The position numbers and the translations under genes are program-made. A DNA stretch of 64,000 nucleotides from Ignavibacteriota bacterium (lineage in GTDB: Bacteria; Bacteroidota; Ignavibacteria; UBA10030), in the NCBI GenBank assembly GCA_963727825.1, contig CAVSHO010000011.1, positions 32,001-96,000 on the forward strand, written 5' to 3'. Below the pieces are notes generated by a model, which was given only the letters and a program-made list of their open reading frames with translations, was not told the DNA's origin and did no database searches. The number at the start of each line of letters is the position of its first letter. Positions within the stretch are counted from its first letter, which is position 1. Shown here piece by piece: positions 42,335 to 59,746 of the stretch.

Positions 42335-42413
42335 TGATATTCATTGTCCTTATTTGATCAATTACAGAAGATTGCCTTTGATTATGAAATCAATGACAGG
42401 GGGTATAAATATT

Positions 42414-43127: not shown

Positions 43128-43277
43128 TGATCTGTAAATAATGACGAAATGCGACCGCTTCATTATCATTAATACTTAATGCAAATGAAATATTGAAGCA
43201 GATTAAAGCTATGATCAATAAAAGAATATTTAGCGTTCCCATCTTTATAATGTCTTCCCTCGATTATTGAATTTACT

Positions 43278-43305
43278 GCCTAACGAATTGTACTAAGCTG
43301 CCACA
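43278..43305 (-). other. Orphan attC right half (L'/R')
   Basis: GCCTAACGAATTGTACTAAGCTGCC matches the array's attC ends, e.g. GCCTAACGAATGGCAACTAAGCTGCC at 49537. Confidence 0.55.
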
Positions 43306-43593
43306 GTACAAATTTTCGACATGCAATATCCGAAACAAACTCATCTGCGAAGATGCCGTTTATTATTTTCTTCTCTTTGAGGACTCTATTTGCTCAGCTA
43401 CTATTAAAATAGGAACTTACAGAGTGACTATTTTGTCATAACATTGATAGAAGTATTTATTGCTAACAGATATAAGAAGATTCAATGACTACCAAATCAC
43501 ATTCCTCCACTTGAATTTAGAGTTTGAAACAGGTAAAATGCTTTAACAAAAAAACTTTCTATTGAAATCAAACTCTGATTTAAGGGATTCCTG

Positions 43594-46224
43594 ATGAACA
43601 TTTCTCCATCTAATATTCTTCCAAAACTCTTTCCGACTGTATTGAAACAACAGACAGTAAAGATTCAAGTTTCTCCACTTCTCATAGAATCTTCAGCAAG
43701 TAGTGTAGAACCTCTCCTCGCTCGTTTTAGTACTTCACTTTCAGGTATTTCTAGTGAACGAGCTGCACAACTGCTTGAACAGCATGGGCCAAATGTTATT
43801 GCCGGTGAACAATCGCATAGCTGGCTGAGACTTTTGAGAAATGCGGTCCTGAACCCGCTTGTGATTCTTCTTGCAGTCATTGGAGTTGTAGCATTTCTGA
43901 CCCAGGATTACGATACAGCGGTGATAATTTCACTGATGGTTGTGTTAGGGCTGGTCCTGCGGTTCGTTCAGGAATATCGAGCAGATATCGCTGCCGCCAA
44001 ACTTAGGGCGATGATACATGTAACAACAACATTAGTACGCGATGGTGTTGAACAAGAAGTTCCCATCTCACGCGTCGTACCAGGCGATATCGTCAAACTT
44101 GCGGCAGGAGACATTATCCCTGCCGATATTCGCCTTCTGTCGTGCAAGGATCTTTTTATTATGCAGAGCAGTTTGACGGGCGAATCGCTGCCAGTCGAAA
44201 AGTTTGATGCTCCAGTAAATGGCGCCGATCACTCGCCGTTGGAACTTCACAATCTCTGTTTCCTTGGCACGAGTGTTGAGAGCGGCTCTGCAACTGCTGT
44301 CGTAATAACGACAGGGTTCAACACCTATCTCGGCAGCATGGCCAAATCAATTACTGAACAGCAACCGCCAACTAGTTTCGATAAAGGCATCCAGAGCTTT
44401 ACGTGGCTTATGATCCGCTTCATGTTCGTGATGGTACCTCTTGTATTTCTGATCAACGGACTCACGAAAGGGAACTGGCACGAAGCTTTCTTCTTTGCCC
44501 TCGCTGTTGCGGTCGGACTCACACCAGAGATGCTTCCGATGATTGTCACAGTCTGTCTTTCCAAAGGCGCAATTGCAATGTCGAAGAAGAAGGTGATCAT
44601 CAAAAGATTGCACTCCATCCAAAACTTAGGCGCTATGGACATTCTATGTACGGACAAGACCGGAACATTGACTATCGATCATGTGCTTCTTGAGCAGTAT
44701 TGTGATGTGGTTCGCAAGAAAGATGAAGAAATTCTAATGATGGCATATCTCAACAGTCACTTTCAGACCGGACTACGCAATGTATTGGATCGAGCTATCC
44801 TTCAGCATAATGAAATAGTTGAGCGAGTGCATATTCAAGAATATCGGAAAATAGATGAAATTCCTTTCGACTTCTCGCGAAAAGTTATGTCGGTTGTTGT
44901 GGAAATGCCTGATGGTGTGTATCGTATGATCACCAAAGGTGCTCCTGAAGAAATTTTCAAACGCTGCACACATTTTGAGCTTGACGGCGACGTTGATCCG
45001 ATCGAGCCAATTCTAATTCAGGATTTGAAAGAAGAATACGAGCGCTTAAGCGCAGATGGATTTCGGGTGTTAGCCCTTGCGTACAAAGATCTTGATAAGA
45101 AATCAGCTTATGCGAAAGATGATGAGAGCAATATGATTCTCCATGGCTATCTCGCTTTCCTTGATCCGCCAAAAGAAACTGCCGCACCAGCCATTAAAGC
45201 ATTGCAGGCACATGGTGTTACGGTTAAAGTTCTGACTGGAGATAACGAACTCGTCACGCATAAAATATGCCAGGTCGTTGGACTGAATGCCGAACATATG
45301 ATGCTCGGAAGCGAAGTGGAACATCTGAGCGATGATGAACTGGCTATCAAGGCGGAACAAACGACGATCTTCGCTCGGCTATCTCCTGCACACAAACAGC
45401 GCGTTGTGCGAGCACTTCGGAACAATGGCCATACCGTCGGATATATGGGAGACGGCATCAACGATGCACCGGCGCTTCGCGCTGCGGATATCGGCATCTC
45501 GGTAGATTCGGCGGTCGATATTGCAAAAGAGTCAGCCGATGCGATCCTCCTTGAAAAAAGCTTGATGGTTTTAGAAGAAGGCGTGCTGGAAGGACGTAAG
45601 GTCTTTGCAAACATTCTTAAGTATATTCGAATGGGAGCAAGCTCAAATTTTGGAAATATGTTCAGCGTCCTAGGCGCAAGCATTTTTCTTCCGTATTTGC
45701 CTATGTTACCGGTTCAGATCCTTACCAACAATTTGCTTTATGATTTCTCGCAGACACCGATTCCGACTGACGAGGTCGACGCCGATCAGGTCGCAAAGCC
45801 TCGTCCGTGGGCAATCGGCAACCTTACCAGATTTATTCTCTTTGTCGGGCCTATCAGTTCGATCTTCGATTATACGACGTTTTTCATCATGCTTTATGTA
45901 TTCAATTGTTGGAACCCCGCACATGCATCATTGTTTCAAACTGGTTGGTTTGTCGAGTCGCTCCTTACACAGACGCTCATTATTCATATCATCCGAACCA
46001 ATAAAATTCCGTTTTTACAAAGTCGTGCAAGCTGGCCGTTATTGGCAATGACAGCTGTTGTGATGATGATCGGAATGTGGCTTCCATTCGCACCATTTGC
46101 AGGCGCACTAAACCTTACGCCCCTGCCTCCGCTATATTGGCCGTTAATCGCTCTTACATTGGTCAGCTACATTTTCCTAACACAATTCGTCAAGCAATGG
46201 CTTTTAAAGATGACCTGGATATGA
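43594..46224 (+). CDS. mgtA: Magnesium-translocating P-type ATPase
   Basis: LTGESLPVEK, AVGLTPEMLPMIV, DKTGTLT, DEIPFDF, GDGINDAPAL, ASSNFGNMFS, FQTGWFVES. Confidence 0.93.
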   Translation: MNISPSNILPKLFPTVLKQQTVKIQVSPLLIESSASSVEPLLARFSTSLSGISSERAAQLLEQHGPNVIAGEQSHSWLRLLRNAVLNPLVILLAVIGVVAFLTQDYDTAVIISLMVVLGLVLRFVQEYRADIAAAKLRAMIHVTTTLVRDGVEQEVPISRVVPGDIVKLAAGDIIPADIRLLSCKDLFIMQSSLTGESLPVEKFDAPVNGADHSPLELHNLCFLGTSVESGSATAVVITTGFNTYLGSMAKSITEQQPPTSFDKGIQSFTWLMIRFMFVMVPLVFLINGLTKGNWHEAFFFALAVAVGLTPEMLPMIVTVCLSKGAIAMSKKKVIIKRLHSIQNLGAMDILCTDKTGTLTIDHVLLEQYCDVVRKKDEEILMMAYLNSHFQTGLRNVLDRAILQHNEIVERVHIQEYRKIDEIPFDFSRKVMSVVVEMPDGVYRMITKGAPEEIFKRCTHFELDGDVDPIEPILIQDLKEEYERLSADGFRVLALAYKDLDKKSAYAKDDESNMILHGYLAFLDPPKETAAPAIKALQAHGVTVKVLTGDNELVTHKICQVVGLNAEHMMLGSEVEHLSDDELAIKAEQTTIFARLSPAHKQRVVRALRNNGHTVGYMGDGINDAPALRAADIGISVDSAVDIAKESADAILLEKSLMVLEEGVLEGRKVFANILKYIRMGASSNFGNMFSVLGASIFLPYLPMLPVQILTNNLLYDFSQTPIPTDEVDADQVAKPRPWAIGNLTRFILFVGPISSIFDYTTFFIMLYVFNCWNPAHASLFQTGWFVESLLTQTLIIHIIRTNKIPFLQSRASWPLLAMTAVVMMIGMWLPFAPFAGALNLTPLPPLYWPLIALTLVSYIFLTQFVKQWLLKMTWI

Positions 46225-46514
46225 AATAGGTTTGCAACATCAATACATATTTCATTATTATTCAATAGGAAGGAAATGAAGAGGCGTTTTTAGCGGGCTA
46301 CATATAACAAAAAGATGGACTACACTCCATCATTGGCAAATGATAGAAATGTTAATACCTTTCTCGCAAATAGGGAAGGAATTTAACTCCTGGCAAATGA
46401 ACATAGGATCCACTCCCCTGCTCACAAATCCCAGCGAGCATAGCGGTAAAAAAAGGCTTAAGAATATTTGTAGATAGGATTGCATACAATAGAGGGGCAA
46501 CAAAAAAGGCATCT

Positions 46515-46536
46515 GGTTCAAGTCCCGCCCCCGCTA
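46515..46536 (+). other. 3' fragment of a tRNA (initiator Met-like); possible att-site scar
   Basis: GGTTCAAGTCCCGCCCCCGCTA matches T-loop plus 3' acceptor strand; no 5' half of a tRNA upstream. Confidence 0.55.
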
Positions 46537-46551
46537 ATTAGTCCCAAGAAG

Positions 46552-46586
46552 AATCCTCATTAAATTAATTTGGTGAGGATTTTTTT
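46552..46586 (+). terminator. Intrinsic terminator (possibly bidirectional)
   Basis: AATCCTCA...TGAGGATT followed by a T tract. Confidence 0.6.
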
Positions 46587-46733
46587 GTCTATGGGCAAAA
46601 CTTTGATGTGTTTTTATTGTTTTTGATACCGGTGCTCATCCGGTAATCTTGCCTACCTGCCGTCTTTTGGACGGGAGCGCCTCAGTTAAGTGTTTTTGGT
46701 AATAATCTTTTGCAAGTATCGTTGTCTTGTATT

Positions 46734-47579
46734 TTATCGGGTGTTATGTTCTTTGTTCCAGTCATTTAGAACCTTAATCATATGAGGAAGCAATTCTATT
46801 CCTCCTTCTTTACCGTGACCAGGAATTACAATGCGACAATCTTGAAATCTATTCATTACTTTTTCAACAGAAACTGGCCATTCAGCCATATTCGCATATC
46901 CGATAAAACCGGGGTTATTATGCTCCAACCCTTTTATCATACAGCCTCCAAACAGAATCTTTCGCTTATGAAAATAAACAACCGTGTTATCTATTGTGTG
47001 AGATTCTCCCGGAAAGTATACTTCAAAAACCTCGTCTCCAAATTTCAATTCTAAGCCTTCTTTGATAGGAAAAGTTTTATTTGGCGGCATCAAATTTAGC
47101 TCCTTGTAAGAATTGAAGTAACGCTTATTCTCACTAGAAGAAACTGAATTCAAAATGACCTTTTTTAATTCTACACCCTTTTCTTTTATAAGTTTCACTG
47201 TTAAATCAGGACCATATACCGGGATGTTCTTGGAAAACAAAACTTCATCGCCTCCAAGGTTATCCTGATGAAAACCAGTAACAATTGCCATTAATTTAAG
47301 CGACCCAAAACTCTTTTCAATCCAGTGCAGTAACGAGTCAGTACCGGTTCTTTCGCAAGGTGTGTTAATAAGTAATCCTTGCGAGTCAGGCAAAAGAATA
47401 AACATTCCATTAGAACCCCAGGGAAAATAATGAGTAAATATATAGACACTATCTTGAATTTTAGTATAATACAAATCCTCACTTATCTTGATTTGATTCT
47501 TTTTGGGGTCAGATTGGCAATAACTATTTACTCCATACAGCAATACGATAAGGAGAATAAGAATTTTATTCTTTCGCAA
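46734..47579 (-). CDS. Subclass B1-like metallo-beta-lactamase with Gly at the His116 position (cassette)
   Basis: Signal peptide; SNG..LLINTP; TGFHQDNLGG (G-x-H-x-D); FPGESHTIDN; LFGGCMIK; VIPGHG. Confidence 0.85.
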   Translation of the reverse strand: MRKNKILILLIVLLYGVNSYCQSDPKKNQIKISEDLYYTKIQDSVYIFTHYFPWGSNGMFILLPDSQGLLINTPCERTGTDSLLHWIEKSFGSLKLMAIVTGFHQDNLGGDEVLFSKNIPVYGPDLTVKLIKEKGVELKKVILNSVSSSENKRYFNSYKELNLMPPNKTFPIKEGLELKFGDEVFEVYFPGESHTIDNTVVYFHKRKILFGGCMIKGLEHNNPGFIGYANMAEWPVSVEKVMNRFQDCRIVIPGHGKEGGIELLPHMIKVLNDWNKEHNTR

Positions 47580-47645
47580 GTTGAGTCCTTTTATAATTTA
47601 TACCTGTTTGTCATATTTATAATAATTGCTAACCCTAGTAAAAAC

Positions 47646-47879
47646 GCCTAACGAATCGGCGCTAAGTCCCGATTCGACAGATTTGATGTTTTCTAATCAA
47701 ATCGTGGTCGAATCGCGGATCCCGCTTTGCGGGATCTAAAATTTTTACCACGTTGAAAACTTTCAAATTATTGAAAACGAAATAAGTTCCACGTAGAAAG
47801 TTTTATTATTTGTACCAGACCTTTACTCGCAATGAATTTTGCGCTAAGCTATTGTGTCAGATAGAGCGACTAGTTAGGT
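47646..47879 (-). other. attC site (~234 bp) with nested hairpins
   Basis: Minus strand ACCTAAC-TAGTCGCTCTATCTGAC ... CTTAGCGCCGATTC-GTTAGGC. Confidence 0.75.
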
Positions 47880-47897
47880 TACGGGGTGATATCTGTT

Positions 47898-48473
47898 TTA
47901 AAAAATAAACGGTATTAATGCCGAAACACGCCGTGAATATGTTGCATACGTTTCCCCGAATTGTGCTCGCATCAATTTTTCCTCAAGCCTCAATTTGTAG
48001 AATAGCACAGCGAATACTAATACGACAGCAACTAATCCACGCCACTTACCGATTGCGACTGCTGTACCAAATAATGCAAATAAAAGTCCTGTATAAATCG
48101 GATGACGTACAAAAGCATACGGTCCACTTGTCACCAACTGATGATCTTGCTTAATTGTAACAGCCTGGCTCCAATTAGTTCCTAAATGATTTCGTGCCCA
48201 GATAGAAAATAATAGACCGTTCGCTGTAAAAATCACACCAATCCAAAAGCTAGTAAAACCCGAAGGGACAAAGCGCTCATCAAGAATATCAAATGGAATA
48301 TTTTGTAAGACGAGCAATACTATTGCAGAAATCATCGCAATGAGCCGTACGATACGTGATTGCGCAGATTCGCGTACCTGTTCCGTTTGCTTGACATTAT
48401 TTGCCTTTATCCACCAATAGATTTGATAAGCTAACCAGAGTATTACAATTAGAGAATAGTAAATTATCTTCAT
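47898..48473 (-). CDS. Isoprenylcysteine carboxyl methyltransferase (ICMT/Ste14-like) membrane protein (cassette)
   Basis: LGTNWS, HQLVTSGPYAFVRHPIYTG, EEKLM..FGETY; start reset to MKII because the longer ORF begins inside the attC. Confidence 0.88.
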   Translation of the reverse strand: MKIIYYSLIVILWLAYQIYWWIKANNVKQTEQVRESAQSRIVRLIAMISAIVLLVLQNIPFDILDERFVPSGFTSFWIGVIFTANGLLFSIWARNHLGTNWSQAVTIKQDHQLVTSGPYAFVRHPIYTGLLFALFGTAVAIGKWRGLVAVVLVFAVLFYKLRLEEKLMRAQFGETYATYSRRVSALIPFIF

Positions 48474-48487
48474 TGCTTTTTCCCGAG

Positions 48488-48650
48488 CCCTAACGGTTGG
48501 CAACTAAGCTGCCGCGTTGATAACTTTCAAATTGTATTAAACGAACCAAGTTCATTCACTTCACTAAACCTTTGAATGTAATGCAAAATGCACCCACGCC
48601 TGCCTGCCGGCAGGCAGGCTCGTTTGGTCAGGTTGAGCCGATGGTTAGGC
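48488..48650 (-). other. attC site (163 bp)
   Basis: Minus strand GCCTAAC-CATCGG-CTCAACCTGAC ... GCAGCTTAG-TTGCCAACC-GTTAGGG; contains the palindrome GCCTGCCTGCCGGCAGGCAGGC (48598-48619). Confidence 0.85.
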
Positions 48651-48660
48651 AATATTAATT

Positions 48661-49506
48661 TTACAATAATACTCCAAACCCGACGGAAAGCGTTGTGTAC
48701 GTGACATTAATATTGATGTTATTGCCGCTAGCTGAACCGCCAAATGACTTATATAACCACTCAATGAATATTTTATTGATTTCTAATCTTAGACCACCGG
48801 CGATATATAAACCACCGCTCAAATTGTATGGACCGCTATAAAATGAATCTCCATTGAATATTACATCATAACCAACATTTGCGATAATAATCGGGATGAC
48901 TTTTTCTTCTTGACTTGTTAGTTTAATTTTTACGACCTCATAAAGAGGAACATAATTGAATTTACCGCCTCCTCTTACATCTAGTCCTCGAGGATTGAGA
49001 TACATAATACCAAAAGCATAATTAAACACATTATCATTTATTTCCCCATACTCAAGCGCGAAAGATATTCCAGTCATTACATCTATAGAGCCGGATTGGC
49101 CCATAGCACTCGCTTTGTTACTTCCCGCTAAGTCAGCGCATACCTTTAGGGATACTCTTGCTGCAGATGTTTCCTTGGTTTTTGATGGAGATATATTATT
49201 AATCGGTTGAACAGAATAAATCATTGATTTATTTATTGTTATAAATCCAAGATTAGATTGATATGTCGCAGTAGAATCATTTGCTGAAATAAATTCTCCT
49301 TCAAAAGAATTTCCATTTAAAAGCTTAACTAGAATCATTTGCTTTGCTTGAAGAGAATCCTTTTTTTGTATAGATATAGTTTCTGAAGAATCTTTCTTTG
49401 ACATATCACTATAGTGTAAATAGTTATTAGCGGTATCAATTTGAGCAGAAGTTAATTGACAAACCATCAATAACAATCCTACAAACAACGTAATTCCTTT
49501 CATCAT
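48661..49506 (-). CDS. Secreted/outer-membrane beta-barrel hypothetical protein (cassette)
   Basis: Signal peptide, small VKLLNGNSFEG domain, amphipathic C-terminal strands; GGAGGAG RBS. Confidence 0.7.
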   Translation of the reverse strand: MMKGITLFVGLLLMVCQLTSAQIDTANNYLHYSDMSKKDSSETISIQKKDSLQAKQMILVKLLNGNSFEGEFISANDSTATYQSNLGFITINKSMIYSVQPINNISPSKTKETSAARVSLKVCADLAGSNKASAMGQSGSIDVMTGISFALEYGEINDNVFNYAFGIMYLNPRGLDVRGGGKFNYVPLYEVVKIKLTSQEEKVIPIIIANVGYDVIFNGDSFYSGPYNLSGGLYIAGGLRLEINKIFIEWLYKSFGGSASGNNININVTYTTLSVGFGVLL

Positions 49507-49536
49507 CTCCTCCAATGAATTGATTTAATTAATGTT

Positions 49537-49734
49537 GCCTAACGAATGGCAACTAAGCTGCCGCGTTGAATAGTTTCGTGATGCACCCAAGGAAACAAGT
49601 TCACGCTACCGATAGAATTATTAAACATCAAACCTCTAAACGCAATGTTGATTGCTCCCACGCCTGCCTGCCGGCAGGCAGGCTCATTCGGTCAGCTTGT
49701 CCGAGGGACTCCTTCTGAGAGCCGCAGGTTAGAA
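49537..49734 (-). other. attC site (198 bp) with an insertion in the L'' box
   Basis: Plus strand GCCTAAC...CTAAGCTGCCGCGTTGA ... GTCAGCTTG[TCCGAGGGACTCCTTCTGA]GAGCCGCAG-GTTAGAA; palindrome at 49662-49683. Confidence 0.8.
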
Positions 49735-49759
49735 CACACGCTGTAGGTCTATTATTATT

Positions 49760-50596
49760 TTAATCAATGCTATAATCTCCAGGTTGAGGCAATTTATTAC
49801 GTAGCTTCCAGAATATAACCGCAATTACTATTGAGAAAACACATAATCCAAGACCCATTTCCGTGAGGAAATAACTTTTGCCTCCTTTTTCGATTAGGAA
49901 TTGATCAAATACATTTTGAATAAAGAAATTATGACTCGCATGATAAAATAATCCTACCCACAAACTTCCTGATTTTATCCTCAACCAAGTCAACATAAAG
50001 CTAATTGAAACCAATGATATTGTACTAATTACTATTTTAAAAATAGAAAAACCACCTCCATAATTGGTCATTATCATTAAGGGAATATGCCATATTATCC
50101 AAATAGCACCAATTACAAATGATGTTGTTGTCATATTGGTTAGTTTATATAATCTTGGGGTAAGGAAACCTCGCCATCCAACTTCTTCTCCAAAAGAACC
50201 AATAGCTCTTAATAAAAGTCCAATAATGCAGAAAAGAAGAAAATCCACGCTTATAGGTAAGTTAGAACCTAATCCAATTTTGAAATGCTCTTTGACACTC
50301 CCGATTTTGGTTATCCATGCAAAACCATATATAACAATACCATAAATAATTGGTATTAAAAGAGAAAGAAACAAATACTTACCTTTTCCCAATTTCCATC
50401 CTAACTTGTTTATTTTCCGATCAGATATTAGCCTTGTGATTAAAGCGGCTAAGAAAGGGCTATAAACCAGGAGCAATGTAACTGCACTGTCTTCAACGTT
50501 TGGTCCAGTACTTTGAGAAATTAGGATATAACTTAATCCACTAAAGATTATTAATAAAGTTAAAAAAATAAATATTTCCTTTTTCGTTTTTTCCAT
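49760..50596 (-). CDS. CPBP (CAAX/Abi) family intramembrane metalloprotease (cassette)
   Basis: GEEVGWRGFL, WIIWHIP, YHASHN. Confidence 0.9.
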   Translation of the reverse strand: MEKTKKEIFIFLTLLIIFSGLSYILISQSTGPNVEDSAVTLLLVYSPFLAALITRLISDRKINKLGWKLGKGKYLFLSLLIPIIYGIVIYGFAWITKIGSVKEHFKIGLGSNLPISVDFLLFCIIGLLLRAIGSFGEEVGWRGFLTPRLYKLTNMTTTSFVIGAIWIIWHIPLMIMTNYGGGFSIFKIVISTISLVSISFMLTWLRIKSGSLWVGLFYHASHNFFIQNVFDQFLIEKGGKSYFLTEMGLGLCVFSIVIAVIFWKLRNKLPQPGDYSID

Positions 50597-50688
50597 TATT
50601 TCTCCATAAGACGATTTGGATGTCCTAAGTACAAGATACTTTTCATCTTACAAATAACTTTGTAATGGCACCAAAATTTATTCGTCTG

Positions 50689-50864
50689 TTCTAACGAACG
50701 GGCACTAAGCTGACGCATTGATAACTTTCAAATTATACTAAACGAAACAAGATCATTGAACATTGAACACTCGCACCCCGATAAATCGGGGCGCTTCGGG
50801 AAAGTATTATTTACTTGTCCGAAGGACCCCTACGGGGACTCTTTCCTTTTTAAAATGGTTAGCT
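50689..50864 (-). other. attC site (176 bp), left arm degenerate
   Basis: Plus strand TTCTAACGAACGGGCACTAAGCTG ... AAATG-GTTAGCT; two internal micro-hairpins. Confidence 0.7.
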
Positions 50865-50923
50865 TGCAAACAGATGACGTATTTTGTGATTTAATTATTA
50901 ACTTATCTTTGTAAAGCTAGTGT

Positions 50924-51521
50924 TTATGAAACCTTTTGTGTTAAAAAGAACCTGAAAAAGCCACCATACCATTGTCTTCTCGCCAGTATTTTAAGTCCAG
51001 CTTGTTGAATTCCCATCTCGAACTCTGCCCACTCAAACATTTTGTGCGGCTCTTCTATGAGCATGACTCCATCAGAAACAAGTACCTGGTACAGCCTCTT
51101 CCAAAGTCTTTCGCCAAAGAGGAATATGATGTAGAACACCGAAATCAAAAACTGCATTGCAACTAGAATCTGGTGCATTCATAGCGTTTGCATCACCTAC
51201 CATAAAATCAACATTAAGTCCACATCTTTTTGCAAGTTCAATTTGTTCTGGCATAATATCAAATGCAATGACTTGCGATGGTTTCAATTCCTTAATAATT
51301 AACTCAGTGCCAAATCCAGAGCCGCAGCCCATGTCCATTATAACTTTTCCGGACAAATTAATTTTATGCATTTGAAGCATTTTAAAAAATAACGGAAATT
51401 CCTGATGTTTCCATCGCCATCGTCTAAGAGGGTTATTCATTGCTAAGAATTCAAATCTACCTAAACGAATACTTTCTTTTGAATCTTCCATACCATATTT
51501 CCACTTTATATTGTTTTTCAT
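50924..51521 (-). pseudogene. Class I SAM-dependent methyltransferase with a frameshift near 51095 (cassette)
   Basis: MDMGCGSGFG, FDFGVLHHIP in ORF 51072..51521; continuation LYQVLVSDGVMLIEE in ORF 50924..51178. Confidence 0.8.
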
Positions 51522-51672
51522 TAAAATGGTTCGCTAAAAATTAATGAAGAACAATATAATCGCCCATTATTTATCGGCAAAGCTCGAGATATTGTCGGTA
51601 AATATCGAATTATTTGCAGATTCTTTAAATGGCCACTTTCAAAAATTAAAAGAACAATGGTTTTTACTGTGC

Positions 51673-51853
51673 ACCTAACGGACAGGCGCTCCGCCCAAAA
51701 GATGGCGGACAAGTAAGCTGCTGCGTTGAATAATTTTCAAGTTACACTCAACAAACTGAGTTCATTGAACACTCGCATCTGAAAAACTATATTTACTTGT
51801 TGAGCTTGCGAAATCCCGCTTGCGGGGACTTTTTCCTTTTTAAATGGTTAGGT
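51673..51853 (-). other. attC site (181 bp) with inserted hairpins
   Basis: Plus strand ACCTAACGGACAGGCGCT[CCGCCCAAAAGATGGCGG]...TAAGCTGCTGCGTTGA ... AAATG-GTTAGGT; backbone similar to 50689-50864. Confidence 0.7.
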
Positions 51854-51883
51854 AGCACAAATAATTATTCATTTATGTCCGGG

Positions 51884-52681
51884 CTATTTGTATCCATAAA
51901 TCTGAGCTTGCCTTGGAAACGTATAATTCGTGGCGCGCCTGAATTTTGAGTTCTGCAAATTAGTTAACATTCGTTTTGCATCCTGTTTGCTCACTATGCC
52001 AGACTTCATTACAGCAGGTGCAATTTCTGATGCACTCATCATAACGAAGTCTATCGCCTCAGCCATTGAAATGACTGGCTGAACAAAGCAAGCATGAATA
52101 TTGGAATACCCTGCCGATATCAATGTCGAATATAATTTGTCACCAATATTGAAATCGAGACCCTGAAGTTTTCCAAGTTTAACAAATAACTCATTCATCC
52201 TTTCGATGGATTCATTACGAGGTGTCGTCATCAAGGAACTTGCATGAGGTTCTTCGCAAGCAATGACACCACCAGCTCGCAAATATCTTTTTAGGCTGAT
52301 TAGCACTTGCTTCGGATCCTTCAAGTGCATTAATAATAATCTGGAATAGATTAGATTAATAGAATTGTCTGGCAAATCTAACGCCTCTACCGTTGAGAAA
52401 ATGAATTCAATATTTGCAGCCCCCGATTCTTCTGCGGCTTTTCTGGCTAATTCAAGTTGCTTTTCACTGGCGTCGACTGCCATAATGTGACCTTTTATGC
52501 CAACTTGTTTCGAAAGCCACGTTGTCATCGATCCTATGCCACATCCAACCTCCAGAATTTTAATACCCTCTCTTAACCCGGCTCGGATGAGAAAATTTCT
52601 ACTGTGCTCACCAAATACTTCATTTATAAATTTGAGTCGGTTAAATCCTTTTTTCCCGACCTCCAAGATATATTCACCCAT
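51884..52681 (-). CDS. Class I SAM-dependent methyltransferase (cassette)
   Basis: ILEVGCGIG, AVDAS, SRLLLMHL, LRAGGVIACEE. Confidence 0.9.
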   Translation of the reverse strand: MGEYILEVGKKGFNRLKFINEVFGEHSRNFLIRAGLREGIKILEVGCGIGSMTTWLSKQVGIKGHIMAVDASEKQLELARKAAEESGAANIEFIFSTVEALDLPDNSINLIYSRLLLMHLKDPKQVLISLKRYLRAGGVIACEEPHASSLMTTPRNESIERMNELFVKLGKLQGLDFNIGDKLYSTLISAGYSNIHACFVQPVISMAEAIDFVMMSASEIAPAVMKSGIVSKQDAKRMLTNLQNSKFRRATNYTFPRQAQIYGYK

Positions 52682-52692
52682 TATGTTCTCTT

Positions 52693-53226
52693 TTATTTTG
52701 TGCTACCTAACGATTGGCGGCTAAGCTGCTGCATGGCAATAGCTTTAACACGATCGCAATTTCGTCGAACGAACCAATCAGCAAGTAATGGACGGTATTC
52801 ATGTTGCAAATCTTCGGGCAGAAGAAAGAAGTCGCCAGAAACTTCTTTGCGACACCGTTTTGATCCACAATTACATAGCCAAGATGTACCGCCCGTGATA
52901 TTGATATTGTAATCAATTGTGATCTCTTCTCCCGCAGAGATGGCTCGACGAGCAACAAGATATGATTTTTTTCCTTTGAATAATTGATAGGAGTTCGGAT
53001 CGCAACAGTGGTTGACATGTCGATCTGGGAATCCTAACAGTAACACTTTACCATCGGGATAGTCACAGTGGTCAATTCGCTCGCCAAGCTCCTCTCGAAG
53101 AGGGGAATCAGACGTAATTTCTCGAATAACATTGACACAGCTGATGCGCTCACCGATATAAAACGAACGCACCGCGAATATTCCCAAACCTTCAATTGAA
53201 GAAGTCTTAACTTCAATATTGTTCAT
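52693..53226 (-). CDS. SET domain protein whose C-terminus reads through a half attC
   Basis: GLGIFA, VNHCCDPN, GEEITIDY, post-SET CNCGSKRCR. Confidence 0.88.
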   Translation of the reverse strand: MNNIEVKTSSIEGLGIFAVRSFYIGERISCVNVIREITSDSPLREELGERIDHCDYPDGKVLLLGFPDRHVNHCCDPNSYQLFKGKKSYLVARRAISAGEEITIDYNINITGGTSWLCNCGSKRCRKEVSGDFFLLPEDLQHEYRPLLADWFVRRNCDRVKAIAMQQLSRQSLGSTK

Positions 53227-53261
53227 ACTAAAATGTAATTAGCTAAATGCAATTGGGCACG

Positions 53262-53437
53262 GCCTATCCGATCGGAACTAAGTGAAACATGGCGCTTTGC
53301 GACACTGCGGCGCTGATAATTTTCCAATTTTACAGCTGTCGCGCGTGACATCTAACCTAAATTCATAGGCTAAACTTTCTTTGCACGGTTAATTGCACCC
53401 GCGTTTTTCCCGTTTGCTTGAATACTTCGATATTACC
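53262..53437 (-). other. Degenerate attC-like element
   Basis: GCCTATCCGATCGGAACTAAG (core AAC changed to ATC) plus the shared interior motif GCGCTGATAATTTTCCAATT. Confidence 0.4.
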
Positions 53438-53483
53438 AAAAAGGAACCAATCCATAATTACTTTCCTTAAAGTTTTATCATCT

Positions 53484-56400
53484 TCATTTGTAATCCACCG
53501 CTTTATTTGGATACAAAGGGGGAAGAGGCACTTGAATAGGATGGTCTTTGATTTCTTGACTTAAATAATTTATTGCCGCCTCAAGCTGAGCATCTTGTCC
53601 GTTAAATGTTTGATGGGGAGTGTCATCAACTACGATATCCGGATCAACACCATGGCCTTCTATGAGCCATTTACCTTCTGGACCATAAACTCCATATTCT
53701 GCGGCTGAAGCGATTCCATTGTCTCGCAGCCAATTGTCAAATGACAACCAAATCTCACCGCCCCACGTTCTCATACCAATTACTTTGCCAAGACCGAGGC
53801 GCCTAAAGCCTTCGGTGAATGCCTCTCCATCCGATGCTGTATTCTGATCACATAGTACAACTAGATGACCACAAAAAGCATATTGCATATTCCAAGTAGG
53901 CACACCGGCACGGTCTTGCCAATACATCCAAGCTTTTCGAAGAAGTTTTTCAAGTATCCAACTATCGATGTTGCCGCCGTTATTATGGCGCACATCGATT
54001 ATCAATCCATGACGATTAAAAACAGGATAAAATTCTTTTACCCATTCAGTATAATTTCCACCTCCCATAGCGCGAAGATGAATATATCCAATCTGATTGT
54101 CGCTTTCCTTTTCAACCTTGAGTCTTCTTGTGTATTCCCATTCGCTGTACCGTAGGCTAAATGCGGCTTGCTGTGAAATTGGAATGACTACGGCATCAAA
54201 CTCTTTTCCAATTGAACCGGATTTTAAATGCAAAAGCACTTGCTGACCAACCTGATTCTCAAGGAGGACATTCGGCGAAGCGACTGAATCAGTTGAAACT
54301 CCGTTGATTGAGAGAATGATGTCTCCTTCATTGATATTGGATCCTGCTTTTGCGAGTGGAGAAATGTCTTCGAGATAATCGGGATCAGATTTGTAAATGT
54401 GATTGATTTTATAACCGCCGTTTTTATCATCTTGGATAATTTCTGCACCAAGTGAGCCAACCGATACTTGAGGTTCCGGCCTCCTGACATCGCCACCCAT
54501 GACGAAAATATGCAACGCTGAAAGTTCCCCCACAATTTGACCGATGAGATCATTCAACTCATCTCTATCTCTTACTCTGTTAACTAACGGTAAAAATCTT
54601 TCGAGAGTTTTTTCATAATCAACACCTTGCATTCCTGGGTCGTAGAAATAGTCGCGCTCAAGCCGCCATGCTTCGATAAACATTTGCCGCCATTCTTCAA
54701 GCGGATCAAATGAAAATGTCCATTTGCCCAGATCGACAGCATTTTTCGAGAAGTCAGTTATCGGAGATGAGGATGCATCAACGACGTTAAAACCGTCTCC
54801 CTTCCTCACCATTATCTTCTTCCCATCTGCAGTAAGTTCATAACTTTTGATATCTTCTACGATCGATTTTACAGAGACATCTTTGTTCACAATCTCGATT
54901 GCATCGAGTTTTGTTTTCCGTTCTGCCGCAAGAGGAGTTTCTGAAACGAAAAGCATCTTATCGTTCAAAGCGAGATTTGAATAATTTCCTGCTGCAACTG
55001 GAACCTGGTATATTCTTGTTTGTATTCCATCAAGGTCAATTTTCACTTCCACATTTTTTGATTTGTCCTTTGATTCAGAATCTTTTCCCTTAGCATCTTC
55101 AGATTTTCCCTTTGATTCATCGGAAGTTTTGGATGAGGGATGTAACTCATCGGAAGGGCTAAACGGAAACCTGATATCTTTCAGAAGCGCGATCGCAAAA
55201 ATCTTTGTTGTATTGGAAAAAAAAGGCTCAGGCTCCCGATGTCCCCATGGACTTCCAACTGTAGATTGGAAATTTCTGTCCGATAAGAAATATATCCATT
55301 TCCCATCTGGACTCCATGCGGGGCTGTAACTATCAGTTCGATCGTCGGTCAATGTCGTTATCTTTTTATCGGCGATATTGTAAATAACAATACGGTTATA
55401 TGTGTTGGCGGCTTGCGAAATGTAAGACAGCCACTTACTATCCGGTGACCAGCATAAATTTTCAAAACTAGCATATTGCGAAGTCTCAACAATTTTCGTC
55501 TTCTTTGAGACAGAATCATATAAAAGAAGCCGGTTATCTTTATCAGTGTAAGCAATCATTTTTCCGTCAGGAGAAGGAATCCCGTCCATCCTAAAACCTT
55601 TTCCATCATTTGTAAGCTGCTCACCTTTTCCGATGCCGTTAGCTGGATATTTCCAAAACTCAACTTCACCCGTTTGTTCAGATTGTAATATGATGGATTT
55701 TCCGTCATGAGAAAATTTTGCATTTCGATATCTCACTCCTGATTCCCGTGTCAATTCCACAAACCGGCCATCACTGACTGGTGCAACAAAAACCTGTCCG
55801 CGCGTTGTGAGAACAATTCTATCGCCATCAGGAGAAATATGAGCTGATGTAAGATAGTCCATCGGTTTCTTGACCCATTGTATCCTTGCTTGATCGAAAT
55901 CCGATGAAAGGAAAATCTGAACTATGTTGTCTGAGTTCGATGTAATATCATATAAATAGATATCAGCGCCGCATTGATAGACAACTTTGCCAGCATCGAG
56001 AGATGCCGATGCAGCATCGAATCCCTTATGAAATGTTTCTTGACTTAAATTTTTCCCGTCTTCATTCATCGACCAGATATTCATTGTGCCATCTCGGTCG
56101 CTAAGAAAATAAACCCGTCCGTTCCATAGCATAGGATTCTTACTTGTGCCAGCATAATCACTTGTTAGAGAGACCGCCTCCTGATCTCCTTTGACATACC
56201 GCCAAATATTCTGTGCGGTTCCGCCTTGATATCTCTTCGTGTGACTGCCCTGGAATTGAAGGCGTGTGAAAAAAAGCGTATCTCCACTTGCATCAAATAT
56301 TCCATCGCTCGCTTGGGACAAAGGAACAAAATTCTTCTCTCTGTTTTTTGGGTCAATGATCATCAATTGAACATTCGGCAGGGTAGAATAATTATTTGTG

Positions 56401-56765
56401 GCGTAAATTATTTTTCCATCTGCTGTCCATCCGATCGCTGTTGTATTTTGGCCTTCGTATGTCAATCGCTTGGGAACGCCGCCATCGATTGGCATTGTGT
56501 AAACTTCCGTTGGCCCTTCATATTGCGCTGAGAATGCAATCTGAGATCCATCAGGTGAAATTACTGCATGCGCTTCGGTCCCCTGATTCGTTGTAATTCT
56601 CGCTGCTGTGCCACCATGAGTGCTGACCATCCAAAGATCACCTTCAGCTGTAAAAACTATTTTGTCCCCATGAATGGCTGGATATCTATAGTATCCCTGC
56701 TTCATACTTGCAAACGATAGATGGGAAACAAAGACTAATGAGAAGAAAAAAATTAAGCGATTCAT
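53484..56765 (-). CDS. Tricorn-like S41 protease (beta-propellers, PDZ, S41 domain)
   Basis: IVFTAEGDLW, repeated SPDG/WSPD propeller motifs, GYIHL, DVRHNNGGN, TASDGE, IEGHGVDPDI. Confidence 0.92.
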   Translation of the reverse strand: MNRLIFFFSLVFVSHLSFASMKQGYYRYPAIHGDKIVFTAEGDLWMVSTHGGTAARITTNQGTEAHAVISPDGSQIAFSAQYEGPTEVYTMPIDGGVPKRLTYEGQNTTAIGWTADGKIIYATNNYSTLPNVQLMIIDPKNREKNFVPLSQASDGIFDASGDTLFFTRLQFQGSHTKRYQGGTAQNIWRYVKGDQEAVSLTSDYAGTSKNPMLWNGRVYFLSDRDGTMNIWSMNEDGKNLSQETFHKGFDAASASLDAGKVVYQCGADIYLYDITSNSDNIVQIFLSSDFDQARIQWVKKPMDYLTSAHISPDGDRIVLTTRGQVFVAPVSDGRFVELTRESGVRYRNAKFSHDGKSIILQSEQTGEVEFWKYPANGIGKGEQLTNDGKGFRMDGIPSPDGKMIAYTDKDNRLLLYDSVSKKTKIVETSQYASFENLCWSPDSKWLSYISQAANTYNRIVIYNIADKKITTLTDDRTDSYSPAWSPDGKWIYFLSDRNFQSTVGSPWGHREPEPFFSNTTKIFAIALLKDIRFPFSPSDELHPSSKTSDESKGKSEDAKGKDSESKDKSKNVEVKIDLDGIQTRIYQVPVAAGNYSNLALNDKMLFVSETPLAAERKTKLDAIEIVNKDVSVKSIVEDIKSYELTADGKKIMVRKGDGFNVVDASSSPITDFSKNAVDLGKWTFSFDPLEEWRQMFIEAWRLERDYFYDPGMQGVDYEKTLERFLPLVNRVRDRDELNDLIGQIVGELSALHIFVMGGDVRRPEPQVSVGSLGAEIIQDDKNGGYKINHIYKSDPDYLEDISPLAKAGSNINEGDIILSINGVSTDSVASPNVLLENQVGQQVLLHLKSGSIGKEFDAVVIPISQQAAFSLRYSEWEYTRRLKVEKESDNQIGYIHLRAMGGGNYTEWVKEFYPVFNRHGLIIDVRHNNGGNIDSWILEKLLRKAWMYWQDRAGVPTWNMQYAFCGHLVVLCDQNTASDGEAFTEGFRRLGLGKVIGMRTWGGEIWLSFDNWLRDNGIASAAEYGVYGPEGKWLIEGHGVDPDIVVDDTPHQTFNGQDAQLEAAINYLSQEIKDHPIQVPLPPLYPNKAVDYK

Positions 56766-56857
56766 TTCTACCTCCGTAGGTTAAATAAGAAGATATTGAT
56801 GACTCCAAAGAATGATACTCTAACTGTATATAATAACTTCCATCATAATTGCAAGTG

Positions 56858-57029
56858 CTCTAACAGAATGCGGATAAGCCACAGGTTAGGCATTTCGAAA
56901 AATATATTCTTGTTAGATGTGACTACTGCAATTTTTAATCAATATATCTGCTTTTATAAATATGTCTACCAACGCACTATTTCCGTCAGCTAGCTCGCCA
57001 TCTTATTAGGCAGGAGGGCCTCGTTAGGC
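56858..57029 (-). other. attC site (~172 bp)
   Basis: Plus strand CTCTAACAGAATGCGGATAAGCC ... GTCAGCTAG...GGGCCTC-GTTAGGC. Confidence 0.6.
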
Positions 57030-57034
57030 GCGCT

Positions 57035-57628
57035 TTAATTTAATAGGTAACGTCTAACAACATCTTGAACTATAGACAACCATTGTTGCCGTTGCTCTAT
57101 TGTACTCGTAACTATAACGTTGAACATCTCTCGATGGAATATTCTTACACCACAAAGATCAAAGATACAATTATTCCAGAGAGTTTCTAATGGATCACCA
57201 AAGTTTTTGATTTCACGTTCTGTTGGTGTATTTGATGTATTGAAAATTAGAGCAACCTTTGCTTTCAAAAGACCAATTGGAACTCCTTCGCCATTATCAC
57301 CATCCATAAATTTGTATGCAGTTCCTGGACGAAGTACTCTATCTATCCATCCTTTTAAGATAGCTGGAGGTTGGCCCCACCAATTTGGGTGAATCACAAT
57401 AATGCCATCTGCAGTGGAGATTTCTCTACAATGTAATTCTAGTATCTGTGGAAGAACAGCATCTTTAGATATTTCATCAGTGATGAGAATAGGATCAAAT
57501 CGTTCAGCATATAAATCATGGAATGCCACTTGATGACCATTCTGATGCAGTTCAGCGATAACTGTTTCTGCGATTGCATGGTTGAAGCTTTGTGGATTGG
57601 GATTAGCAAGTATTACAGAAATCTGCAT
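57035..57628 (-). CDS. Flavodoxin-like NAD(P)H dehydrogenase (quinone) (cassette)
   Basis: ANPNPQSFN, HDLYAERFDP, HPNWWGQPPAILKGWIDRV. Confidence 0.9.
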   Translation of the reverse strand: MQISVILANPNPQSFNHAIAETVIAELHQNGHQVAFHDLYAERFDPILITDEISKDAVLPQILELHCREISTADGIIVIHPNWWGQPPAILKGWIDRVLRPGTAYKFMDGDNGEGVPIGLLKAKVALIFNTSNTPTEREIKNFGDPLETLWNNCIFDLCGVRIFHREMFNVIVTSTIEQRQQWLSIVQDVVRRYLLN

Positions 57629-57677
57629 TGTTGAGGAAAGCCTATTTATTAATACATATGCGATTTAAGAAAGCGCG

Positions 57678-57790
57678 CCCTAACGAATCGGCGCTAAGTC
57701 CCGATTCGAAAGATTTGATGTTTTCCAATCAAATCGCGGATCCCGCTTTGCGGGATCTAATATTTTTCGACACTGCAGCCCTGATAAGGT
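57678..57790 (-). other. attC right half, near-copy of 47646-47746
   Basis: CCCTAACGAATCGGCGCTAAGTCCCGATTCGA..GATTTGATGTTTTC.AATCAAATCG..GCGGATCCCGCTTTGCGGGATCTAA shared with 47646. Confidence 0.75.
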
Positions 57791-58287
57791 TCAATCAACA
57801 TAGAAATAACCAATAGCCATACTCTCATATGGATTCCTTTTAAGGACTTGGGGAATGGTTCAATGTATATAAATGTGGTATTATCTACAATAAAAAAGTC
57901 CCTGATACACTACCAAATGCCAAGCGCTTAGGGAGGCTAACTGTGCCCACCGGGAAAGTGAGCACTTGAAACATATAAATCATTTATGATTTAGCCAACT
58001 TGCCGATAGTAACCTTTTTCAAAAACAAAATATAATTTATAGAAATCGATTTACCCTATAGGAACAAAAACATTTTCCAGAAAAAATTCTGGCGGAATCA
58101 CTTTGCCTTTCGGTTTAGATTGATTCCTCTGGTATATCAAAGTGGAAGCAACCATATCGATCCCTCCGGAGTCGCCGGGTTGAGGTTCGTTTGGGTCCCA
58201 TATTTGATATTTCGCCAATGGCAAGATGGCAACATTGATATCGCCATCAATCCTTTAGGTGCTGGCGAAATGGTTAAAACTCCGTCG

Positions 58288-58761
58288 TTACTTGAGTATC
58301 ACCATTTTCCTTAGAAAGATGTGGTGATTGTTTTGATCATCCATGGCAATGAGCCGGTAGATGTACATTCCGCTCGCTAATCGTCCTGCGTTGAGAGTCT
58401 TTTGATAGTAACCGGCAGGCTGAGCTTCATCGGCAAGCGTCATCACTTCACGACCAAGAATATCATAGATCTTCAAACTTACACAGCTATCTTTAGCTAA
58501 CTCGTAACTGATAATGGCAGTGGGATTGAACGGATTAGGATAATTCTGATAGAGTGCATATGCTGTCGGTATCTCTGGATTGGTTGACACCTATGTTACA
58601 TTATTCCATTGAAATTTAAATGCCCTTTAGCTGAAGATGCTGTCCGGGAATTGGATTTTATATACAGTGCTTCCATCTGGCCGGACTTCAATAACTGCCA
58701 ATTCGGCTGCACCTCATCCGATAAATGTGTTTCCATTCGACAATCGTTCAACCGAACCCAT
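58288..58761 (-). pseudogene. Fourth ASST-like paralog, C-terminal remnant with three in-frame stops
   Basis: Reads MGSVERLSNGNTFIG*GAAELAVIEVRPDGSTVYKIQFPDSIFS*RAFKFQWNNVT*VSTNPEIPTAYALYQNYPNPFNP..., collinear with 17378..19273. Confidence 0.85.
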
Positions 58762-59002
58762 CGCTACTATGAAGACGCATTGATACAAATATCACAGAAA
58801 ACGGAACTATATCGATAAACATCTCGTTTGGGCTATGAAAAGGAATAAAAGAAGCCAAATATGTCCTGGATTATTACATGTCTTTATTCGGATTGCAGTA
58901 TTGTAGATAAATAACAATAATCGAAATATCCTTTTTAATGCGATTTAACTTGATAAATCTTGATGTATTTGGTAGAATTCATTAAATCAAAGAGTTTAAT
59001 AA

Positions 59003-59746
59003 ATGTATAGAAATATTATTATACAAAGCACCAATAATGATTTATTTCACAATCTTGCATTTGAAGAATATGCAATGGAAAACCTGGCTGGAGAATATAA
59101 AATTCTTTTTTTATGGCAGTCTGCCGGGTCAATTGTAATTGGAAAGAATCAGAATCCTTTTAAGGAATGCAATGTTGACAATGTGCTGGAACATAAAATG
59201 CAACTTGGAAGGCGGGTTTCGGGAGGAGGAACTGTATATCAAGATCTTGGAAATATGAACTTTTCGTTTATCTCAGGAAAAGAGTTATTCAATACAGATG
59301 AAAATTTTTCCTTAATTATCGGGACTTTGAAGAAATGGAATATAGACCCGTATATTTCTTCTAATAACGATATTATGGTATTTGATAAAAAAATTTCTGG
59401 AAATGCATTCTGTCATAAAAAAAACAGTTCTATGCACCACGGAACTCTTCTTGTTGAATGCGACCTTATCAAGCTCGAGTATTTCTTAAAAAAACCTGAG
59501 TATAATATTATTGGTAATTCGGTATCATCAAAAAGAAGCTGTACTGCAAATATAAAATCCTTCAATAGAAATATAAATATTTATAATATAAAAAAAGAAA
59601 TAATAAAGGAATATGATAATAACTGCAGAGCATTTAATGATTATGATCTAATTGATGAAAATGTTTTTCCAATATATTATAGAAAAATGGAAAGCATCAA
59701 GTGGATATTTGGTTTTACTGAAAATATTGCTGTAATAAAAACCTGA
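59003..59746 (+). CDS. lplA: Lipoate-protein ligase A (catalytic domain only)
   Basis: NLAFEE, IVIGKNQNP, RRVSGGGTVYQDLGN, KISGNA, HHGTLL. Confidence 0.88.
   Translation: MYRNIIIQSTNNDLFHNLAFEEYAMENLAGEYKILFLWQSAGSIVIGKNQNPFKECNVDNVLEHKMQLGRRVSGGGTVYQDLGNMNFSFISGKELFNTDENFSLIIGTLKKWNIDPYISSNNDIMVFDKKISGNAFCHKKNSSMHHGTLLVECDLIKLEYFLKKPEYNIIGNSVSSKRSCTANIKSFNRNINIYNIKKEIIKEYDNNCRAFNDYDLIDENVFPIYYRKMESIKWIFGFTENIAVIKT

Follow-up and report, generated by a model that had tools for sequence, protein, structure and literature searches.

Nine co-oriented genes separated by elements resembling the attC sites of integrons, in a stretch of DNA in which no integrase is found, raise the question of whether these genes are integron cassettes and, if so, to which integron they belong. 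They lie on the minus strand of the window analysed here, the 64,000 nucleotides (nt) of C11:32001-96000, where C11 is one of the 14 contigs of the assembly of an uncultured Ignavibacteriota bacterium with an estimated contamination of 6.55%. Positions given without a contig are those of the window. A preliminary description of the same DNA had proposed an integron-type cassette array with unusually long attC sites at 46685-57790. An array of this type is indeed present, as the elements belong to a defined attC family, the cassettes have cognate ends, and an integrase gene (intI), an attI site and a main array lie on the same contig. Our reading, to which we give a probability of about 0.9, is that the minus strand between 43.3 and 57.8 kb holds a cluster of attC sites lacking integron-integrase (CALIN), which is a satellite array of a sedentary chromosomal integron (SCI) of this Ignavibacteriota genome. 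The nine genes were found again as nine minus-strand open reading frames (ORFs) between 46.7 and 57.7 kb, and the array is real, but it is longer than proposed and extends from ~43278 to at least 57790.

The integron next to the window and its attC family

We determined where the integrase might be by searching the whole genome with the TIGR02249 profile, reading through stops. None of the 13 matches is in C11:32001-96000, which contains no IntI-like match at all, and neither an insertion sequence nor an intI pseudogene was seen beside the satellite array. The window is thus without integrase, as had been stated, but this is an effect of where it was cut, since an intact intI is found 1.2 kb before its start. 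This gene (C11:29893-30834) is an open frame without stops and scores 447.9 bits (cut-off 265), while the other 12 matches are ordinary tyrosine recombinases, all below the cut-off. Residues 6-318 of the 319-residue product align with VchIntIA of Vibrio cholerae (PDB 2A3V, E 3e-83). Its four closest relatives, with 72-83% identity, all come from Ignavibacteriae/Ignavibacteriota metagenome-assembled genomes, in keeping with the Ignavibacteria/Bacteroidota-like host that had been suggested; the next ones show at most 58% identity and come from many phyla.

Upstream of intI, GTTAGGTGCCATTTGC at C11:29613 is the exact complement of the first attC flank at C11:27254, which places the attI crossover at C11:29613 and delimits a first cassette of 2.36 kb. 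This cassette (C11:27270-29556, minus strand) contains four consecutive ORFs of 315, 97, 117 and 228 amino acids (aa) and, because it is bounded by a 16-nt cognate repeat, it is best seen as a multi-gene cassette in the expressed position. The N-termini of these ORFs resemble signal or lipoprotein sequences. The main array, found first by a simple motif search and then by a covariance model, comprises 22 model matches in C11:1-27256, on the minus strand and divergent from intI. Together, intI, attI and main array (C11:1-30837) amount to a complete sedentary integron in this genome.

The satellite array shares its contig and strand with the main array and lies on the opposite side of intI; its nearest attC site (C11:75278) is ~44 kb from the end of the integrase block (C11:30837). 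While the main array has intI within a few kb, as expected for a complete integron, the satellite array does not; it consists of clustered attC sites (nine model matches with E<0.01 in 42800-59200) with no intI or pseudogene nearby, which is why we classify it as CALIN-type. Genome-wide, the model detects 44 attC sites with E<=0.001, on contigs C11, C1, C9, C12 and C6. Since attC sites are found at the ends of C12, C6 and C1, and the main array runs off the start of C11, the latter probably continues across contig breaks. Further attC matches lie beyond the window end, at C11:97182-100365 and 150070-151334.

The covariance model was built from 18 attC sites that are all outside the window (15 in C11:2-27 kb, two on C12 and one on C1) and was used to search 42800-59200 on both strands with filters off. 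All nine significant matches are on the minus strand, with none on the plus strand. Five are full-length (26-96 bits), measuring 163, 176, 181, 198 and 234 nt, so that the model arrives independently at the related elements of 163-234 bp described previously. They account for five of the ~10 intergenic elements, the remainder being arms or fragments. In agreement with this, a repeat finder shows that the spacers between the ORFs are mutually related (families D1-D8 and D11), and on the coding strand they start with a CTAAC-type core and end with CTTAG-N8-9-GTTAG.

The family has a consensus of 159 nt, and 20 sites picked by regular expression measure 153-230 nt, with a median of 159. On the 5' side of the top-strand consensus, R'' (CCTAAC) and a short spacer without pairing precede a covarying stem of 6 bp, which is followed by an unpaired C, the sequence AAGCTG, an unpaired A and CGG. 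Then come ~105 nt of variable structure and a 3' side made of CCG, CAGCTT, AG-NNN-C, a 5- to 6-nt spacer and GTTAGG (R'). The CTAAC/GTTAG cores are invariant and paired in 18/18 members. The consensus fold computed by RNAalifold for these 18 sites has 5 bp between R'' and R', a short asymmetric spacer and an L region of 15 pairs, five of which show compensatory changes on both sides. Paired cells reach 98.1%, against 90.0% in shuffled alignments, and the covariation score is 0.218, against 0.072 in shuffles and a value reached by none of 500. When the pairing partner was slid by one to three columns as a control, 15-48% of cells were paired. As predicted from the alignment, the unpaired top-strand C, the six AAGCTG/CAGCTT pairs and the unpaired A would form a bottom-strand G, a 6-bp stem and a T. 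This is the arrangement of functional attC sites, which require a stem of 6 bp between a first extrahelical base that is mostly G and a last one that is a conserved T (Nivina et al. 2016, PMC5027507). The bottom-strand pairing of R''/R' and of the L boxes that had been anticipated is thus predicted, extrahelical bases included, with support from covariation.

At 153-230 nt in the family and 163-234 nt in the satellite array, these sites are longer than the published range of 57-141 bp, in which the chromosomal sites of Vibrio are a homogeneous group of 120-129 bp (PMC5371416). That the attC sites are unusually long is therefore correct, but the canonical 159 nt are only modestly above the range. 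The extra length of the family resides in the variable terminal structure, while the longest satellite sites owe theirs to inserted hairpins or modules. Of the 18 aligned sites, all from outside the window, three (C11:10516, 18115 and 22692) carry a 38-nt hairpin, and a perfect 22-nt palindrome occupies this same attC position in two window sites (48598-48619 and 49662-49683). The position resembles a hot spot at which stems are extended or small insertions occur. Length is a descriptive feature of attC sites and not a mechanistic requirement. The default attC size limits of IntegronFinder are 40-200 nt.

Might these elements be repeats of the repetitive extragenic palindromic or miniature inverted-repeat transposable element kind, or terminators, that merely look like attC sites? 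They are GC-rich, hairpin-forming and intergenic, hairpin modules occur inside them, and no Rfam family matches them, all of which would suit such repeats. We nevertheless find this explanation barely credible, because the same family forms an array directly beside attI and intI, its cores, spacer, L boxes and extrahelical-base geometry fit attC, and the cassette-specific complementarity described next begins exactly at the GTTAG core.

Cassette ends and their recurrence in related genomes

If the elements are attC sites, each cassette should carry its site at the 3' end and have a 5' end that complements its own inverse core, and this is what we found. Numbering the cassettes 1-9 from the high-coordinate end of the array, the two ends of cassette 4 are complementary at 15/15 positions (51847 versus 52697-52711) and those of cassette 7 at 16/17 (48644 versus 49543). 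Three further pairs match at 12/13 (49728 versus 50695), at 11/13 (46685 versus 47652) and completely except for one extra G (57023 versus 57684). All five repeats had been reported previously, and our recount gives the same figures. For each of 31 R' sites from both array zones of C11, we then looked for the longest stretch of exact complementarity within 5 kb downstream, i.e. on the cognate side, and within 5 kb upstream. The median is 13 nt downstream versus 6 nt upstream, and complements of at least 12 nt are found for 19/31 sites downstream versus 2/31 upstream, which shows that the end repeats exceed chance. Such repeats are frequent in the main-array zone (18/22 sites) and rare in the satellite array (1/9). 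In the loci of relatives they occur at 8/19 R' sites versus 0/19 in the upstream control; several of these loci are only ~3 kb long, so that the misses include truncated cases.

According to the established integron mechanism, IntI would recombine folded bottom strands and cut between G and TT. Each unit here is an ORF followed by an attC site of the genus-wide family, and the G/TT cut would account for its 5' end starting TTAGG and for its own inverse core at the 3' end. Cassettes would be excised as circles and re-inserted at attI. The complementarity spans 13-17 nt, i.e. 6-10 nt more than the classical 7-bp core, and for this reason it would be complete only in the excised circle. Any functional role of this extension is speculation.

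One speculative possibility is that the recombinogenic hairpin extends past the R box as a cassette-specific outer stem of 6-10 bp beyond the cleavage point. As long as a cassette is part of the array, the outer half of this stem is contributed by its neighbour, the next cassette, so that the stem could be complete only in the circle. We consider the idea doubtful. If true, the outer stem would let the integrase or DNA folding tell free from stored cassettes. It might, for instance, promote attI x attC insertion and make excision of stored cassettes less frequent. Under the same assumption, the hairpin modules that recur in attC arms would be small elements homing to folded attC DNA.

How widespread is the family? 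Within the genus, the model detects it in 15/15 other genomes, where the number of sites ranges from 3 to at least 93. It is found in 0/3 genomes that represent other genera of the family and in 4/12 from other families of the order. This distribution supports the earlier suggestion of a lineage-specific attC family. An intI above the cut-off is present in 5/5 genus genomes checked. Genome G010 has two (C2:60156-61097 and C11:24567-25508, with 453 and 426 bits), which makes the remains of a second integron another possible source of satellite arrays.

When a 20-kb query covering the array was compared with relatives, matches were obtained only in blocks, and these correspond to single cassettes (46673-47667, 52747-53282 and 53471-56880). 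Cassette 9 (46673-47667) is 79-86% identical in five genus genomes, the 86% being to G009:C5. Cassette 3 (~52740-53282) is 83-85% identical in two (G015:C1:3149414 and G013:C362), and cassette 2 (53471-56880) is 86% identical to G015:C1:2425257-2428666, in that one genome only. In G015, the matching cassettes lie between attC matches and have unrelated neighbours; in G009, the matching cassette adjoins weaker attC matches, again with unrelated neighbours. The same cassettes are thus found in different contexts, as expected of mobile cassettes, and cassette order, which was to be compared among strains, varies among these relatives. The G009 copy of cassette 9 has a canonical R'' (GCCTAAC) and a 15-nt end repeat that is intact except for one changed base in R' (GCTAG), while the window copy has two changes in R''.

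Public sequencing reads offer four runs from two studies, which contain at most 0.25 of the sampled words, in short Logan contigs with a depth of ~2-6. The five joints listed in these contigs are all inside attC repeats and have sides of 20-52 nt, which makes them indistinguishable from cross-matches to other family members or other organisms. Loose contig ends at 48489/48490, 49537 and 51674 (past R' cores) and at 50868 (R'') would fit attC sites joined to other cassettes elsewhere; each is a single contig, and we do not count them as evidence.

Condition of the satellite sites

The individual sites of the satellite array, from its upstream end, are as follows.

57678-57790, minus strand: attC remnant, the upstream-most, forming the 5' bound of cassette 1; CTTAG-N9-GTTAGGG (regular-expression match 57698-57680) preceded by a three-hairpin module of ~95 nt; model 6.9 bits, E 0.61, not significant.
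56858-57029, minus strand: attC after cassette 1, 172 nt, delineated manually by sequence reading; 5' arm recognisable but interrupted, 3' arm with shortened L', R' = GTTAGAG; the model finds only the 34-nt R''-stem-R' core at 56858-56891 (15.9 bits).
53308-53413, minus strand: partial degenerate attC after cassette 2; central part only (model positions 23-135, 15.2 bits), with GGATAGG at the R' position.
52705-52733, minus strand: L'-spacer-R' remnant starting cassette 4, GCAGCAGCTTAG-N9-GTTAGGT (regular expression, repeat family D3); 5' arm not detected, no model match.
51673-51853, minus strand: attC of cassette 4, 181 nt, with an extra hairpin separating L' (CTTAC) from R'; matched by the model over its full length (26.4 bits, E 1e-6).
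50689-50864, minus strand: attC of cassette 5, 176 nt; full-length match, 28.2 bits; canonical 3' arm, 5' arm mostly replaced, many non-pairs in the alignment.
49537-49734, minus strand: attC of cassette 6, 198 nt; a canonical member of the family, with 20 nt inserted in L'' and the 22-nt palindrome as a second insertion; matched across model positions 1-159 (96.3 bits, E 2e-27).
48488-48650, minus strand: attC of cassette 7, 163 nt, the best preserved; 93.2 bits, model positions 1-159.
47646-47879, minus strand: attC of cassette 8, 234 nt; a variant whose 3' arm contains the three-hairpin module; matched across model positions 1-159 (66.8 bits).
~46640-46691, minus strand: truncated attC ending the contiguous array; 5' arm only, R'' mutated to CTTAAC (sequence reading and alignment with contig C9).
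43278-43409, minus strand: isolated 3' part of an attC, CAGCTTAG-N8-GTTAGGC; regular expression, and model 19 bits, E 1.6e-4.

One more model row, 50189-50311, is not significant (E 0.42). A possible decayed attC 3' arm at ~58745-58830, ending in GTTGAAC, was seen by eye only, and the model did not detect it.

Both cores are present in five satellite sites, while the others have one core or a mutated core, and within the satellite array the full extrahelical-base geometry is kept only in 48488-48650 and 49537-49734. We infer that only two or three satellite sites keep the full architecture. Most satellite cassettes are probably fixed, as frozen relics, while the cassette at 48494-49543, flanked by two well-kept sites, could, judging from its sequence, still be excisable in trans. 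The three-hairpin module of ~95 nt is 95% identical between 47646-47746 and 57678-57767 (direct repeats D7 and D11), and the stretch 47645-47790 recurs at 81-92% identity in many loci of genomes G005, G011 and G013. Either the module marks a subfamily of attC sites, or it is a small element that settles in such sites.

Several observations weigh against our reading of the locus. First, the satellite sites score 7-96 bits with the model, compared with 118.7-160.2 bits for seven main-array sites on which it was not trained, and several of them are without one arm or have mutated cores (CTTAAC, GGATAGG, CTTAC). The low scores reflect hairpin insertions in L arms, replaced 5' arms, mutated cores and lost arms, and it is this gap between 7-96 and ~119-160 bits that makes most satellite sites look degenerate. 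Second, folding the bottom strands, as had been proposed, gave a divided answer: covariation supports the pairing, but the unconstrained minimum free energy structure closes R'/R'' in only 2/8 elements, namely 48488-48650, where the L region is closed as well, and 51663-51863, which includes extra flank. We relied on covariation instead, because an unconstrained minimum free energy fold is a poor test for single-stranded DNA of 160-240 nt. Third, the four public runs, with their short and low-depth contigs, yielded no usable excision junction. Finally, repeats invite misassembly, and a single contig is the basis for the distance of 44 kb from intI; the large-scale layout has to be read accordingly, given the 6.55% contamination and the contigs that end in attC repeats.

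The scores could also be viewed differently, with the array fully active and its long sites, which bear modules and insertions, being functional lineage-specific attC variants that have not decayed, which is in essence the view of the preliminary description. The module variant at 47645-47790 recurs, as noted, in several genus genomes and scores 66.8 bits over its full length, and insertions recur in position, as the 38-nt hairpin and the 22-nt palindrome show. Moreover, the variable terminal structure is described as tolerating large variation (PMC4889954). This is nevertheless unlikely in our view, since a whole arm has been lost at 43278-43409, ~46640-46691 and 52705-52733, cores are mutated, and cognate repeats are shorter than in the main-array zone. 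In addition, cassette 9 of G009 keeps a canonical R'' and a longer repeat than the window copy, and one cassette gene, that of cassette 5, is apparently frameshifted.

Misassembly, a further alternative, would mean that the distance from intI is an artefact and that cassettes of the main array, or of another strain's array, were joined here via attC repeats. Besides the number of contigs and the contamination, the main array that runs off the contig start and the attC sites at the ends of C12, C6 and C1 suggest that the assembler broke at repeats, and no listed public contig piece spans the whole stretch. Yet both ends of the array join non-cassette sequence within one contig, the distal junction is an 85% diverged copy of a junction on C9 rather than an exact repeat, and G015, assembled as a single contig, also has attC sites in several places far from its intI, which is located at 3.57 Mb. 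We therefore hold an artefact to be highly improbable.

Read as a satellite array, the locus resembles published CALINs (PMC4889954, PMC9024848) in having at least two co-oriented attC sites with cassettes and an intI elsewhere in the genome. Its distinguishing features are that it shares contig and strand with the main array, on the far side of intI, and that its distal end abuts a copy of the 3' end of a tRNA-Met gene. CALINs have been proposed to be degraded or split-off parts of integrons (PMC4889954, PMC9024848), and the gradient seen here, from intact sites beside intI to decayed satellite sites, bears on this origin. With the SCI of Vibrio (VCR/VXR), the system shares a large chromosomal array beside intI and homogeneous, lineage-specific attC sites common to a genus. 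It differs from it, as far as described in the source cited above, in its Ignavibacteriota host, its 159-nt consensus (153-230), its arrays scattered over several loci and the cassette-specific complementarity 6-10 nt outside the R box. Classical mobile sites such as attCaadA7 (PMC5027507) have the same RYYYAAC/GTTRRRY-type R box, unpaired central spacer and L box with bottom-strand G, 6-bp stem and T, with GCTTAG as L'. By comparison with what is reported there, the variable terminal structure is larger here (~105 nt or more versus 3-100 nt), sequence conservation within the family is strong, and the site is known from sequence alone.

Complete integrons in Ignavibacteriae have been reported with IntegronFinder (Neron et al. 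2022, PMC9024848), in a survey whose main text, in the parts consulted, gives no attC family, length, satellite arrays or cassette content for them. In view of that report, the earlier suggestion that standard detectors could miss these sites is not supported. We found no published description of this attC family in the integron, attC and Ignavibacteria literature, although survey supplements may list attC lengths. The kind of element is known; what is new is the description of its attC family, whose sites are somewhat long and have a canonical structure. It is a genus-wide family delimited in a phylum where integrons had only been counted. A covariance model is available for it, as are the position of the attI crossover, the main array and several satellite arrays. 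A consensus of 159 nt, most of it variable terminal structure, still keeps the canonical extrahelical-base geometry, and a cassette-specific complementarity of 13-17 nt spans the cleavage site. The known integron mechanism is left unchanged by these findings.

Cassette genes and array borders

The nine cassettes carry the following genes.

57035-57628, minus strand: cassette 1, flavodoxin-like NAD(P)H oxidoreductase, 197 aa (Pfam Flavodoxin_2, 6.4e-33; NCBIfam NF007280, 8.6e-20).
53484-56765, minus strand: cassette 2, tricorn-like S41 protease, 1093 aa (Pfam Peptidase_S41, PD40, Tricorn_C1, PDZ_Tricorn), in an unusually large cassette of ~3.6 kb.
52693-53226, minus strand: cassette 3, SET-domain protein, 177 aa (Pfam SET, 1.6e-12, residues 13-107); the ORF runs into the downstream attC remnant.
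51884-52681, minus strand: cassette 4, class I S-adenosylmethionine-dependent methyltransferase, 265 aa (Pfam Methyltransf_31/11/25).
50924-51521, minus strand: cassette 5, methyltransferase in two overlapping ORFs (51072-51521 and 50924-51178) in different frames.
49760-50596, minus strand: cassette 6, CPBP/Rce1-like intramembrane protease, 278 aa (Pfam Rce1-like, 1.6e-13).
48661-49515, minus strand: cassette 7, protein of 284 aa with no Pfam family and a weak match to the LA_3334 family (3.4e-5).
47898-48503, minus strand: cassette 8, isoprenylcysteine/phospholipid methyltransferase-like protein, 201 aa (Pfam PEMT, 3.2e-16, and ICMT, 2.3e-15; NF040696, 1.4e-27).
46734-47579, minus strand: cassette 9, homologue of subclass B1 metallo-beta-lactamases of the SPS-1 type, 281 aa (NCBIfam, PDB).

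The cassette 9 protein matches NCBIfam NF033088 with 188.5 bits (E 1.2e-55), which is below the cut-off of 200. Its best relative of solved structure is SPS-1 (PDB 6CQS, E 8.6e-55), followed by SPM-1. A Gly replaces the first His of the HXHXD motif (TGFHQD), as in SPS-1, while the His196, Cys221 and His263 positions are retained in the alignment; oddly, no Pfam family was returned for this protein. An SPS-1-type B1 homologue is found as an integron cassette in several environmental Ignavibacteriota species, which makes it an example of the environmental cassette pool that is regarded as the source of mobile metallo-beta-lactamase cassettes.

In cassette 5, the Pfam methyltransferase domain is broken at profile position 89/97, and the split is probably a frameshift. 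One Logan contig (run X3) is without one base at 51086, inside the ORF overlap; besides a genuine frameshift, the split could thus reflect a difference between strains or an error in the assembly. A PADLOC scan of the nine cassette proteins returned only methyltransferase-domain matches to mad2, and we therefore claim no defence system.

At the distal border, the array meets two plus-strand features.

46515-46683, plus strand: copy of the 3' end of an initiator tRNA-Met gene with terminator and truncated attC arm, 85% identical to C9:401775-401944.
43594-46224, plus strand: P-type cation ATPase gene, between the truncated attC arm (~46640-46691) and the isolated attC part (43278-43409).

The tRNA-Met part comprises the last 22 nt of the gene, identical to the initiator tRNA-Met on C9 at 21/22 positions, within a 169-nt diverged copy. 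Neither ARAGORN nor Rfam reports an RNA gene at this fragment, and a tRNA or transfer-messenger RNA gene at 46225-46545 was rejected, as both programs find none and only the 22-nt fragment is present. The C9 original has the same tRNA-Met/terminator/attC junction, with another attC-like site ~1.2 kb further on, which suggests an old array end beside tRNA-Met that was later duplicated or transferred.

The ATPase gene has an 86% identical counterpart at G013:C98:20-2841, with no attC detected there, and only relatives with 40-41% identity are found in three of the five genus genomes queried. We dropped as unproven the idea that its insertion had split one attC into the parts at 46640-46691 and 43278-43409, because the same truncated-attC/terminator junction occurs on C9 without the ATPase. 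An LplA-like flank gene was not found in five genus genomes with the query used. Given these results for the LplA-like and ATPase genes, the flanks are variable and offer no empty-site comparison.

Upstream of the array, 58288-58590 (minus strand) is a 100-aa ORF that contains hardly more than a C-terminal sorting domain of the type IX secretion system, with copies of 83-89% identity elsewhere in the genome and in relatives. Beside the isolated attC part, a histidine-kinase gene (42330-43127, plus strand) has a 93% copy at C11:196912-197827 and copies of 75-79% in relatives.

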